Shown here: positions 33,201-38,453 of the stretch, piece by piece | How positions within the stretch are numbered: the stretch's first letter is position 1 | Layout: each line of letters begins with the position of its first letter | Source: Candidatus Gottesmanbacteria bacterium | GTDB lineage: Bacteria > Patescibacteriota > Microgenomatia > UBA10105 > UBA927 | Assembly (NCBI GenBank): GCA_963714095.1 | Contig: OY970230.1 | Span: forward strand, 831,907-895,906 | Length of the DNA stretch: 64,000 nucleotides | Direction: 5' to 3' | Program-made: the position numbers and the translations under genes | Notes under the pieces: generated by a model | Database searches by the model: none | The model's input: the letters and a program-made list of their open reading frames with translations, nothing else | What the model was told of the DNA's origin: nothing

Positions 33201-36200
33201 ACAGGAACCAACGGTCCGACAGGCGCAACCGGAGGCGCAGGTAGTGGTGGAGCAAACGGTCCCACCGGAACAACCGGTTCAACCGGTGCCACCGGAACAG
33301 CCGGTCCTACGGGAGCAACAGGAACCAACGGTCCGACAGGCGCAACCGGAGGCGCAGGTAGTGGTGGAGCAAACGGTCCCACCGGAACAACCGGTTCAAC
33401 CGGTGCCACCGGAACAGCCGGTCCTACGGGAGCAACAGGAACCGAACGGTCCGACAGGCGCAACCGGAGGCGCAGGTGGGAGTGGTGGAGCAAACGGTCC
33501 CACCGGAACAACCGGTTCAACCGGTGCCACCGGAACAGCCGGTCCTACGGGAGCAACAGGAACCAACAGGTCCGACAGGCGCAACCGGAGGCGCAGGTGC
33601 CAATGGTCCAACAGGTGTCACCGGATCTACCGGTGCCACCGGAACAGCCGGTCCTACGGGAGCAACAGGAACCAACAGGTCCGACAGGAGCAACCGGAGG
33701 CGCAGGTGCCAATGGTCCAACAGGTGTCACCGGATCTACCGGTGCCACCGGAACAGCCGGTCCTACGGGAGCAACAGGAACCAACGGTCCGACAGGCGCA
33801 ACCGGAGGCGCAGGTGCCAATGGTCCAACAGGTGTCACCGGATCTACCGGTGCCACCGGAACAGCCGGTCCTACGGGAGCAACAGGAACCAACGGTCCGA
33901 CAGGCGCAACCGGAGGCGCAGGTGCCAATGGTCCAACAGGTGTCACCGGATCTACCGGTGCCACCGGTGTTGCCGGTCCTACGGGAGCAACAGGAACCAA
34001 CGGTCCGACAGGCGCAACCGGAGGCGCAGGTGCCAATGGTCCAACAGGTGTCACCGGATCTACCGGTGCCACCGGAACAGCCGGTCCTACGGGAGCAACA
34101 GGAACCAACGGTCCGACAGGCGCAACCGGAGGCGCAGGTAGTGGTGGAGCAAACGGTCCCACCGGAACAACCGGTTCAACCGGTGCCACCGGAACAGCCG
34201 GTCCTACGGGAGCAACTTAAACCGGCAGGACTGACAGGCGCAACCGGAGGCGCAGGTGCCAATGGTCCAACAGGTGTCACCGGATCTACCGGTGCCACCG
34301 GAACAGCCGGTCCTACGGGAGCAACAGGAACCAACGGTCCGACAGGCGCAACCGGAGGCGCAGGTAGTGGTGGAGCAAACGGTCCCACCGGAACAACCGG
34401 TTCAACCGGTGCCACCGGAACAGCCGGTCCTACGGGAGCAACAGGAACCAACGGTCCGACAGGCGCAACCGGAGGCGCAGGTGCCAATGGTCCAACAGGT
34501 GTCACCGGATCTACCGGTGCCACCGGAACAGCCGGTCCTACGGGAGCAACAGGAACCAACGGTCCGACAGGCGCAACCGGAGGCGCAGGTAGTGGTGGAG
34601 CAAACGGTCCCACCGGAACAACCGGTTCAACCGGTGCCACCGGAAAAACTAGTCAGTTACGGGAGCAACAGGAACCAACGGTCCGACAGGCGCAACCGGA
34701 GGCGCAGGTGCCAATGGTCCAACAGGTGTCACCGGATCTACCGGTGCCACCGGAACAGCCGGTCCTACGGGAGCAACAGGAACCAACGGTCCGACAGGCG
34801 CAACCGGAGGCGCAGGTAGTGGTGGAGCAAACGGTCCCACCGGAACAACCGGTTCAACCGGTGCCACCGGAACAGCCGGTCCTACGGGAGCAACAGGAAC
34901 CAACGGTCCGACAGGCGCAACCGGAGGCGCAGGTAGTGGTGGAGCAAACGGTCCCACCGGAACAACCGGTTCAACCGGTGCCACCGGAACAGCCGGTCCT
35001 ACGGGAGCAACAGGAACCAACGGTCCGACAGGAGCAACCGGAGGCGCAGGTAGTGGTGGAGCAAACGGTCCCACCGGAACAACCGGTTCAACCGGTGCCA
35101 CCGGAACAGCCGGTCCTACGGGAGCAACAGGAACCAACGGTCCGACAGGCGCAACCGGAGGCGCAGGTAGTGGTGGAGCAAACGGTCCCACCGGAACAAC
35201 CGGTTCAACCGGTGCCACCGGAACAGCCGGTCCTACGGGAGCAACAGGAACCAACAGGTCCGACGGGAGCGACCGGAGGCGCAGGTAGTGGTGGAGCAAA
35301 CGGTCCCACCGGAACAACCGGTTCAACCGGTGCCACCGGAACAGCCGGTCCTACGGGAGCAACAGGAACCAACGGTCCGACAGGCGCAACCGGAGGCGCA
35401 GGTGCCAATGGTCCAACAGGTGTCACCGGATCTACCGGTGCCACCGGAACAGCCGGTCCTACGGGAGCAACAGGAACCAACGGTCCGACAGGCGCAACCG
35501 GAGGCGCAGGTGCCAATGGTCCAACAGGTGTCACCGGATCTACCGGTGCCACCGGTGTTGCCGGTCCTACGGGAGCAACAGGAACCAACGGTCCGACAGG
35601 AGCAACCGGAGGCGCAGGTGCCAATGGTCCGAACGGGCGATACAGGAGCCACCGGTGTTGCCGGTCCTACGGGAGCAACAGGAACCAACGGTCCGACAGG
35701 CGCAACCGGAGGCGCAGGTGCCAATGGTCCAAACGGGCGATACAGGAGCCACCGGTGTTGCCGGTCCTACGGGAGCAACAGGAACCAACGGTCCGACAGG
35801 CGCAACCGGAGGCGCAGGTGCCAATGGTCCAACAGGTGTTACGGGTTCAACAGGATCGTCGAGAACAGGCGCTAACGGGCCCACCGGAAATACCAGTGCT
35901 CGGGGAACCAAAGGTCCCACAGACCACCGTAATCAAGCCTGGTGTACGGTCCTACAGGTGCAACAGGCGAGAGCGGTTCCACCGGTTCAACCGGCACAAC
36001 GGGTTCTGGCGGATCCAACGGTCCTACCGGTTCAACCGGCGCAACGGTTGTGGCGGATCCAACGGTCCTACCGGTTCAACCGGCAATGCGGGTGCGCTTG
36101 GCGCAACCGGCGGTGTGCTTCTGACGATGGGGAGCAACAACCTTATTTATCCGTATCCGGCGGTAGGATTAAGCTTTGCGCTCGGCGGCACCAACGGATC

Positions 36201-38453
36201 CGATTCTACGACTGCAACGTCCACCGCAGCAATCGTGTTGTACGGCTCGGCTGACCCAGCAGGTGGAACCGCAGGTAAAAAAGGCGATATCTTTATGGGG
36301 AATAATCTTCAGCTGGGCTGGAATCAGGGAGCAGCGCAGACAGATTCGATATACGGAGGTACGGATGATATACTTTATTTTGGGGCCACCGCACAAACGG
36401 CGGCTGTAAACCTCGGAGCATCAAGCGCAACAAGTACCGTCAATCTCGGGACTGGAGAAGGCGCCCAGACTATCAATATCGGGAGCGGCACGACGAATGC
36501 TAAAACCATTAATATCGGCACCGGCGCTGCAATGGCAAACGGGATCAATATCGGAGGAACCGGTGCCAACGTTATCGCGATCGGCAATACCCAAACCGCA
36601 GGATCCCATAAGTATCGGCGGAGCCGCCGCTACGAGTACAACAATAAACATAGGGGGAACTACGTCGTCAAACGGCACGATTACGATCGGTCAGGCTGCG
36701 GGTGGTCAATCTATCAATATAGGAACAACTGCCGGCACTGCCACACGTACTGTTAGTATCGGCAGCAGCCCGTCAGCAGGCACTGAGACGATTACCCTCG
36801 GAGGTACGCCTACCAGCACCGGTCTTCAGGTAATCAATGTCGGCGCCGGCGGCAACGTGGCGGTGAACGCGCGTATTGTTAATATCGGCAACGGATCTAT
36901 CAACACGAAAGTGCTTTTCTTCCCGCGCACGGCGAACGTCGGGAGTGAATTTAACTCAAACGGTCAATTTGCCATCGGATCAATGGGTACCGCCGGCACC
37001 ACCAACGGCCGTATCTGGATTTATGCCAGCAACACAATTTTCCGGTGGAATTCCGTCGGAAATTCCGCCGACTATTCCGAATATATTGCCCAGACTGAGC
37101 CTTCCGGCCCCGGCGACGTTATGGTCGTAGACTCCACAGCAACGCAAAGTGTGAGGCGTTACCACGGGCCGTACGAAGATAATATTTTAGGAGTCATAAC
37201 CACGACCGGTCTCGGATACAACAATGATTCCGACGCGCCGGACCATCACAATGACAATCCGGCTTGGGCAAACGTCGGTATGCTTGGCCAGGTATCCATT
37301 AAAGTGTCAAGCGAAAACGGAAGCATCCAGCCCGGTGACCGTTTGACGAGCTCCAGCCAGCCCGGCGTTGCCATGAAAGCCACACGGGCCGGACAGATCG
37401 TCGGGCGTGCGCTTGACAGTTGGTCAAATACAGATCCTACACAGGTTGGGATGATCAAAGCACTCATTTCACCGTCATACTACGATCCAGCTGAGGCGAC
37501 GGCGAGCGACTCGGATTTGCAAACACTCCGGCTTGAAGCGGCAAATTCAACGCCATACGTTGCACAGATTCCGTTTGCTAAAGCAGGGGCTGCTGAAGCC
37601 GCAAGCAACTTCGGCAAATATTCCATTCAGGGAATCGTCAGCAGCGCCGTGAAAGCGATGGGGGAGTTTACCAACCTTGTTGCTGCGAATTTCAAAGCGG
37701 GTGTGGTGCAAACCAACGAAGTGACGACCAATACGCTGACTGCCAATCACGGAGCGTTTGGTGACATCGCCGGAAGCCAGGCGGTCGTGGATTCTCTGTC
37801 AGTCGGTACGATTACGCCGGATGCAAGCGGGGCCGTTCATGTCCACTCGGGCGCGGACGGCAAGGTATCGATTCTGGATTCCAACCAGAACGAAGTTTTC
37901 TCGGTGGACGCGGCAGGGAACGGCTATTTTGCCAGGAACGATTACGGCGGATAAATTGAAAGTCAACCAAATAGAAGGATTGGATTTGTCTTCCTTATTC
38001 AATAGCGCAACACCAAGCTCTGTACCGGTGGCTACGTCTACGGCAAACCTGAGTATATTTGACTGGCAGGTGACATTTAACGATGTGGTCACGTTTGTGA
38101 AGGACGTCATCATTCAGGGTCAGTTGACGATAAATAATACGCTGAAGGTGTTAGGGGACATTTCAATATTCGGCCATATTACCGTGAATACTGATACGGC
38201 AGGCGTTGCGGTAATTCCGAGCTCCGCCACGAGTGTGGACGTGCCGTTTGAACAGCCGTTTGCGACTCCTCCGATTGTTACGATTTCATTGGTATTGCCG
38301 CAGGCGACTGACAGCGCATTTATGGCAGAAGGGGTGCAGGCGGCTGTCACGAACGTGACGACAACAGGATTTACCATTGTACTCAATACGCCGGTACCCA
38401 AAGACCTCACCTACAATTGGTTCGCCCTGGCGGTGAATAACAGGAAAAAATGA
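27257..38453 (+). CDS. Giant collagen-like triple-helix repeat surface fibre protein, about 3,730 aa if contiguous. As assembled it is interrupted by roughly 25 frameshifts and one in-frame stop after position 31100.
   Basis: ATG 27257 has SD AGGAGA 4 nt upstream; the ORF track's upstream GTG at 27227 is less likely to be the true start. Two N-terminal hydrophobic segments are present. The ORF stays open to 31210 and includes about 930 aa of GXY. The GXY frame then hops between all three forward frames (ORFs 31214.., 31596.., 32131..36756 and others). A non-collagenous C-terminal region follows (36100-37954, then frame 3 to the stop at 38453), ending ...[29 protein letters not shown]. Confidence 0.7.
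28320..36110 (+). repeat. Coding tandem repeat array of about 865 Gly-X-Y triplets, built from 108-nt and 117-nt higher-order units.
   Basis: Unit A encodes [36 protein letters not shown]. Unit B encodes [39 protein letters not shown]. Copies are degenerate at 28320-28900 and near-identical in the middle. There are no stop codons in any of the six frames. Confidence 0.9.

Follow-up and report, generated by a model that had tools for sequence, protein, structure and literature searches.

A phage gp12 D4-like chaperone module in the putative distal head of a giant collagen-like fibre of Candidatus Gottesmanbacteria

The window analysed here, a stretch of 64,000 nucleotides from Candidatus Gottesmanbacteria bacterium (assembly GCA_963714095.1, contig OY970230.1, positions 831,907 to 895,906), encodes on its forward strand a giant collagen-like protein that carries, downstream of its Gly-X-Y stalk, a module related to the D4 auto-chaperone of the phage phi29 protein gp12. 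We read the region around this module as the distal head of a membrane-anchored, homotrimeric surface fibre of a Patescibacteria (Microgenomates-type) cell. Taken as a whole, a distal fibre head with a D4-like self-chaperone, a repeat shaft and cleavage is the best explanation that we can offer, and one that we consider reasonably probable. By analogy with gp12 D4, three copies of the module would associate first and set the three chains in register, and folding would then spread towards the N-terminus through a connector, a run of xINIGxG repeats and the collagen triple helix. Once assembly is complete, the protein would probably cut its own Ala-Asp bond, with the invariant Asp and Glu of an A|D-Y-S-E motif as catalytic residues. 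The C-terminal piece would more likely be retained as an adhesive tip than discarded, since a trimeric-type H-lectin and a bacterial SH3 (SH3b) domain lie downstream of the module. The analysis shows the repeats, the order of the domains, the conservation of the cleavage motif, and the module's homology and fold; that the chains trimerise, that the module acts as a chaperone and is cleaved, and how the repeats fold are inferred.

The segment ADYSEY...GRALD, which the initial annotation had singled out from the letters together with a list of repeat peptides, spans 37067–37420 and is present in the sequence, as are all of those peptides. The module to which it belongs, a gp12-D4-like (Peptidase_G2) intramolecular chaperone of beta-tulip fold, occupies 37070–37492 on the plus strand and was recognised through Pfam matches in homologues, a profile search of the Protein Data Bank (PDB), AlphaFold2 and Foldseek, and viral relatives. 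Pfam Peptidase_G2 (PF11962, 'IMC autoproteolytic cleavage domain') has a gathering score of 25 bits, and close homologues that are 38–54% identical score 26.8 (P0001), 29.9 (P0005), 26.0 (P0007) and 25.0 bits (P0009), with matches covering the part WANVGMLGQ...GRALD; a further protein, P0157, reaches 37.1 bits over the N-terminal half of the model. When a profile of 37 aligned modules was searched against all PDB sequences, it retrieved 3gqh_A, the cleaved C-terminal fragment of phi29 gp12 (E 8.5e-5), residues 688–767 of full-length gp12 (6qz9_A), and 28nb_A, the 'chaperone domain D4' of the tail spike Dpo31 (E 6.6e-4). An AlphaFold2 model built from an alignment of 40 sequences has a predicted local distance difference test (pLDDT) score of 91–98 over the module, and in a Foldseek search against the PDB this model returned 3gqh_A (E 3.5e-4, probability 1.0, template modelling score 0.56) as well as 3suc and phage capsid decoration proteins. 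Among predicted viral structures, the fold recurs in tail proteins of tailed phages and in giant-virus proteins. The beta-tulip fold has already been tied to gp12 D4 (bioRxiv 10.1101/216911), and we are confident that the module is a homologue of this auto-chaperone (MEROPS/Pfam Peptidase_G2, tandem beta-tulip). Peptidase_S74 (PF13884), which had been proposed as its family, has no match in the window protein, and neither do Hep_Hag and YadA_head (Pfam, E ≤ 1); the module was assigned to Peptidase_G2 and gp12 D4 instead. A stitched, 799-residue version of the head compared with Pfam, NCBIfam, PHROGs and PDB sequences matched H_lectin alone.

The module opens with the ADYSEY motif (37067–37084, plus strand), in which the predicted scissile bond joins Ala (37067–37069) to Asp (37070–37072) and the conserved Glu lies at 37079–37081. 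Both acidic residues of this D-x-x-E signature are invariant in all 37 aligned modules. Run against 1.84 billion cluster representatives (50% identity), the profile of these modules matched 30,769 proteins at E ≤ 1e-3, and in the 150 best of these the signature is kept in 297 of 303 module copies. In the alignment it falls on the very start of 3gqh_A (DFAEYF) and on NTWS|DFAEYF of the precursor in 6qz9_A, which places the window's A|DYSE on S691|D692..E695 of gp12; chain 3gqh_A begins at the same Asp. Residue 691 is the last one of the mature gp12* present in virions (PMC6542822), and since the profile alignment superimposes the two sites, the Ala|Asp pair at 37067–37072 is the predicted counterpart of the gp12 scissile bond.

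Work on phage proteins indicates what such a module may do. D4 of gp12 is a trimerising auto-chaperone whose removal leads to misassembly (PMC3357383; bioRxiv 10.1101/216911), and D4 of Dpo31, which likewise begins with Asp, forms a trimer and no longer accompanies the expressed proteins (PMC13317679). In these systems the trimeric beta structure upstream needs the domain in order to assemble productively, and the domain is cut off afterwards (PMC3357383; bioRxiv 10.1101/216911; PMC13317679). By analogy, a trimerising or chaperone role is likely for the window's module as well, and a homotrimer is a reasonable and sound expectation given the collagen upstream and the behaviour of gp12 and Dpo31. 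As to self-cleavage at the Ala-Asp bond, which the conserved motif suggests, we regard the chances as even.

Several observations weigh against this picture. The window's own module has no match to Peptidase_G2 even at E ≤ 1, and a tblastn search with the module found nothing in 50,697 phage records; what places it in the family is therefore transitive homology, together with profile matching and fold. With its end at 37492 in a protein that continues to 38900, the module is internal, unlike gp12 D4, which sits at the extreme C-terminus and is discarded after assembly, and it has functional-looking domains behind it, which plain cleavage and disposal do not fit. Because adhesion-type domains follow the predicted cleavage site, the phi29 scheme of cleaving and then discarding cannot apply unchanged. 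Relatives with two or three module copies in series are odd for a domain that cuts itself. Release of D4 from gp12 reportedly needs ATP (Xiang and colleagues, 2009), and ATP is not available outside the cell. Finally, the fibre gene as assembled carries at least 22 frameshifts, and the AlphaFold2 monomer of the xINIGxG repeats has pLDDT values of 44–59 and shows no strands or other secondary structure, which leaves the repeat fold without a prediction.

The internal position and the serial copies would be accommodated if the module were a purely structural beta-tulip trimerisation node that has lost the ability to cleave, with membrane anchor and SH3b at the two ends of a single covalent chain. 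The presence of the lectin and SH3b downstream would be natural in such a protein, and the beta-tulip domains of phage decoration proteins provide a precedent for trimer interfaces without proteolysis. What this account finds hard to explain without catalysis is that Asp and Glu stand at the exact module start in every aligned sequence and in nearly every copy within the 150 best-matching representatives, and we judge it unlikely, though worth keeping in mind, next to a module that both nucleates the trimer and probably cuts itself.

The initial annotation had likened the segment to C-terminal chaperone modules of tail fibres; the resemblance in kind is borne out by Peptidase_G2 homology and fold, whereas the C-terminal placing is not, as about 470 residues follow, an H-type lectin and SH3b among them. 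AlphaFold2 was run on 37470–38450 for the downstream part. Immediately after the module, the region 37493–38234 (plus strand) is predicted as a monomer mostly at low confidence; it includes a stretch resembling a beta-helix and a single small beta unit that is modelled confidently. Such low confidence would be expected of segments that depend on a trimer for folding. The H-type lectin domain at 38235–38426 (plus strand) scores 36.4 bits on Pfam PF09458, whose gathering score is 24 (E 5.9e-9), and is modelled as a beta-sandwich with pLDDT 88–97. It is followed by a Pro/Thr-rich linker (38427–38738, plus strand), which contains two frameshifts, and by a bacterial SH3 (SH3_3) domain at 38739–38891 on the same strand (PF08239, E 4.6e-12). 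H-type lectins such as Helix pomatia agglutinin are trimeric, and an H-type lectin trimer fits a head of three-fold symmetry.

The whole fibre gene extends from 27227 to 38900 on the plus strand and comprises about 3,890 codons once frames are corrected, as traced from open reading frames (ORFs) and their frames, homologues, and synteny with a related locus (L009). It begins at 27227 with an N-terminal hydrophobic helix that serves as membrane anchor, continues with a domain of about 280 residues, the collagen region and the head, and ends with the H-type lectin, the Pro/Thr linker and SH3b; the same domain order occurs in homologues, there as one ORF. The frame corrections, at least 22, all fall within 31071–38900. 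A CCC run within the repeats has one C too many at 36607 (plus strand), which moves the reading from frame 1, which holds to 36606, to frame 2, which holds from 36608; two homologues, P0014 and P0016, confirm the resulting join (...NTQTAGS|ISIGG...). At 37934, an additional A takes the reading from frame 2 into frame 0 and thereby accounts for the stop at 37952–37954; homologues read ...GNGYFAGTITADK... across this position. Two further plus-strand frameshifts lie in the linker, one at a shortened A-run (A6, 38445–38450) and one near 38630; P0003 and P0004 read through this part. Since homologues are uninterrupted at all joins of the head, with ...NTQTAGS-I/L-S... and ...RR-I/V-GK..IDG... among their readings, the real end of the protein is 38900 (stop codon 38898–38900) and not 37930.

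So many lesions would also be seen if the fibre gene were a decayed pseudogene whose head is not made, all the more as most flanking genes are intact. The pattern of the lesions speaks for a different origin. After correction the gene has no in-frame stops and is 54–67% identical to its homologues; its Gly-X-Y tract changes frame 18 times from 31071 to 36066 and never over the first 2.8 kb of collagen (28290–31071); 14 of these 18 switches are +1; and one and the same insertion, AAC[A]GGTCC, is found in at least six copies of the collagen repeat, with a similar C[A]GG insertion at 37934. Neighbouring dockerin and glycosyltransferase genes are split likewise. The pattern as a whole fits errors in the assembly consensus. 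Given the missing stops and the high similarity to homologues, we read the frameshifts as probable consensus indel errors rather than gene decay, and a pseudogene appears very improbable. The dockerin gene, on the minus strand from 39748 to 38920, encodes a small secreted protein that begins with a signal peptide and ends in Dockerin_1 (E 1.5e-8); it is split over three frames and needs two frame corrections, and the frameshift-rich stretch therefore reaches past the fibre gene. Farther along, a GT4-family glycosyltransferase gene (48995–50135, minus strand) is represented by two overlapping ORFs, with the Glyco_transf_4 half at 49548–50135 and the Glycos_transf_1 half at 48995–49600, and this split is probably one further frameshift.

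Between collagen and module, the protein carries fourteen xINIGxG-type repeats (36406–36901, plus strand) with a period of 10–15 residues and a mode of 11–12. The motif [IVL]x[IVL]G occurs 14 consecutive times at spacings of 11, 11, 12, 12, 10, 11, 12, 12, 11, 13, 13, 14 and 15 residues, compared with 1.5 ± 1.2 motifs and a maximum of 7 in 5,000 shuffles of the same 230 residues. The periodic run described in the initial annotation is thus real, with 14 motifs against 1.5 expected, but it does not directly follow the last Gly-X-Y: the first repeat lies 97 residues farther on, and the run crosses two reading frames. Tandem Repeats Finder detected no DNA tandem repeat within 36100–36900, so the repeats exist at the protein level only. 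Many homology matches cover this region alone (query residues ~110–280), and across 18 proteins the core is 47–60% identical, with 14 invariant columns. It also occurs in proteins that end in Peptidase_S74 (P0029, P0043, P0084) or K1-lyase_C (P0038), and the repeats appear to be a shaft element swapped among different C-terminal chaperones. A broader set of proteins (P0029, P0038, P0043, P0065, P0077, P0084, P0099) has the repeat core with Peptidase_S74 or K1-lyase_C in place of the G2-type module, and several other repeat-bearing proteins carry a precomputed PF26696 annotation. P0029 has tail-fibre matches in PHROGs, located outside its repeats.

The repeats probably form a chaperone-dependent beta shaft of three chains, whose fold would not be predictable from a single chain. 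This reading follows from their neighbours, an obligate collagen trimer on one side and a trimeric chaperone on the other, and from their pairing elsewhere with two unrelated kinds of intramolecular chaperone. A PDB search with a repeat profile gave no match at E ≤ 10, and the core is a conserved, putative shaft element without structural precedent. The featureless monomer model and a composition of 19% G, 17% T and 13% A could instead indicate a flexible, disordered Gly/Thr-rich linker in which the module alone is folded. Low-confidence monomer predictions are, however, expected for intertwined trimeric fibres, and strong conservation across unrelated architectures, together with the strict hydrophobic-x-hydrophobic-Gly periodicity, argues against such a linker, to which we give only a slim chance. 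Slimmer still is the case for a YadA-like (Hep_Hag) left-handed parallel beta-roll in each chain, as the initial annotation had proposed from the -IG- periodicity. In its favour are the shortness of this motif, whose hydrophobic residues occupy i and i+2, and the trimeric adhesin-like nature of the fibre. Against it, the 18 repeat regions match no Pfam family at E ≤ 10, YadA_head and Hep_Hag included, the period is 11–12 rather than the 14 residues reportedly given by Nummelin and colleagues in 2004 for one coil of the YadA roll, the monomer has no predicted beta-roll, and in place of a C-terminal autotransporter anchor the protein has an N-terminal helix as anchor and ends in H_lectin, the Pro/Thr linker and SH3_3. 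For the repeats, then, neither a beta-roll prediction nor a profile match was obtained, which is the outcome that the initial annotation had named as refuting its proposal; this does not extend to the module, for which profile matches were found.

Two non-repetitive segments flank the putative shaft. On its N-terminal side, 97 residues at 36115–36405 (plus strand) separate it from the collagen; this segment is conserved in P0001, P0092 and L004 and is modelled at low AlphaFold2 confidence. On its C-terminal side, a connector (...INTKVLFF..., 36902–37066, plus strand) is predicted as beta strands with pLDDT 62–73 and is conserved in P0001–P0015; were the chain cleaved, this connector would cap the mature fibre at its C-terminus.

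The stalk itself, a collagen-like Gly-X-Y region at 28290–36110 on the plus strand, amounts to about 2,600 residues and is traceable after frame correction; homologues match Pfam Collagen here. Its long uninterrupted Gly-X-Y tracts are those of a bacterial collagen-like protein, and its core (29978–35839) consists of about 50 copies of units of 108/117 nucleotides with 90% identity, as detected by Tandem Repeats Finder. At roughly 0.29 nm per residue, the triple helix would measure about 0.7 micrometres. The guanine-cytosine content is 64% in the collagen array and 47% in its flanks. The syntenic gene in L009 is merely about 4.2 kb long, possibly as a result of repeats collapsed by short reads.

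A search of 5.8 billion proteins yielded 121 homologues of the protein. The best 12 of these are 35–67% identical over 52–81% of the query, share the order collagen, repeats, module, H_lectin, linker and SH3_3, and come from Candidatus Gottesmanbacteria, Daviesbacteria and Chisholmbacteria and from unnamed metagenome proteins. A scan of representative genomes found 14 loci, every one in Patescibacteria-type metagenome-assembled genomes (MAGs), and intact orthologues with the same domain order are present in related MAGs; at L004, for instance, an intact ORF of 1,440 codons is ended solely by the contig end within the collagen. Several of the MAG records (L001, L002, L008–L012) are titled 'uncultured Gammaproteobacteria' despite their Patescibacteria-type gene, which is probably a labelling artefact of submission. 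Upstream, L009 has the same neighbours as the window, namely a glycogen synthase of 476 residues, a DeoR-HTH protein encoded on the other strand and an HTH_17/dCache membrane protein. In the window this last gene (25284–27230) encodes a multi-pass membrane protein with HTH_17 and dCache_1, and its stop overlaps the fibre start at 27227 by 4 nucleotides; the sensor–fibre pairing, which also occurs in L009, suggests that the two are co-expressed. A prophage origin was considered and rejected, the flanks being cellular (glycogen synthase, glycosyltransferases, Cache sensor) and the neighbourhood syntenic in another MAG; the fibre gene is a conserved cellular gene.

The module family reaches far beyond these orthologues. 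At the stricter threshold of E ≤ 1e-30, the module profile still matched 3,795 proteins, and the top matches are proteins of 600–6,800 residues, the longest having 6,844. All 150 top matches (P0121–P0270) contain two or three complete module copies in series, since a ranking by summed scores puts multi-copy proteins first, and behind their last copy lies a median of 248 residues. Most proteins of the family are without Pfam annotation. The family is very large, under-annotated and typically internal in cellular proteins.

Among characterised systems, D4 of phi29 gp12 (PF11962; PDB 3gqh, 3suc, 6qz9) is alike in that D-x-x-E opens the domain right after the scissile bond, in the conserved blocks GD.V, iiGVvS, W..vGllGQv.VkV and GD.lt, in the predicted fold, and in a location on the C-terminal side of a trimeric fibrous beta structure. 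It differs in belonging to a virion protein, whereas the window's protein is cellular and membrane-anchored, and in following a pectate-lyase-type beta-helix in place of collagen and xINIGxG repeats; the similarity is too low for Pfam on the window's copy or for phage tblastn, and an insertion of roughly 40–60 residues in gp12 and Dpo31 is missing from the window's module. D4 of Dpo31 (marine podovirus tail spike, PDB 28nb) shares the Asp start (...GS|DYAEYF) and the profile match, and we also count as likeness that it is trimeric, auto-chaperoning and absent from purified protein (PMC13317679). Dpo31 is, however, a phage depolymerase with other upstream domains and a C-terminal chaperone domain. 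The Peptidase_S74 (PF13884) endosialidase-type chaperone of K1F and T5 tail fibres is comparable as a trimeric C-terminal folder of a triple beta-helix that then cleaves itself, and as the terminal domain of some proteins with the window's repeat core; it is not homologous to the module and uses a different catalytic chemistry, based on a Ser-Lys dyad. The YadA head (Hep_Hag) resembles the shaft in having short Gly-containing, beta-type repeats within a trimeric adhesin, a resemblance that stops short of profile similarity, period, anchor domain and beta-roll prediction. Bacillus BclA, a bacterial collagen-like filament, combines a Gly-X-Y stalk with a C-terminal globular trimer that nucleates the helix; its head is C1q/TNF-like and uncleaved, whereas the window's nucleator is a G2-type beta-tulip and its stalk is roughly ten times longer or more.

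These findings do not overturn current understanding. As quoted in bioRxiv 10.1101/216911, the gp12 structure paper (2009) had pointed out that D4 shares sequence homology with 'some bacterial adhesion proteins'. There is some novelty in an internal chaperone with a lectin/SH3b cargo behind it and in a conserved repeat shaft without structural precedent. For annotation, it is useful that a gp12-D4-type module is very widespread and yet mostly missed by Pfam, and the xINIGxG core, used with at least two unrelated intramolecular chaperones, is, like the module, a candidate for structure determination. A bolder interpretation, which we consider rather unlikely, is that in this bacterial branch a phage-type self-cutting chaperone has moved inside giant cell-surface fibres, with one copy in the window's protein and two or three serial copies in relatives, so that the assembled fibre would consist of covalently separate pieces joined by beta-tulip trimer interfaces alone; if this were true, the lectin/SH3b tip of the roughly 0.7-micrometre collagen tether would be a detachable or force-releasable adhesive end. 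For the protein as a whole, the analysis assigns a mechanism to the head of a very long collagen-like fibre, namely C-terminal trimer nucleation, probably with self-cleavage, and such fibres could plausibly be the means by which ultra-small bacteria that probably depend on a host attach.

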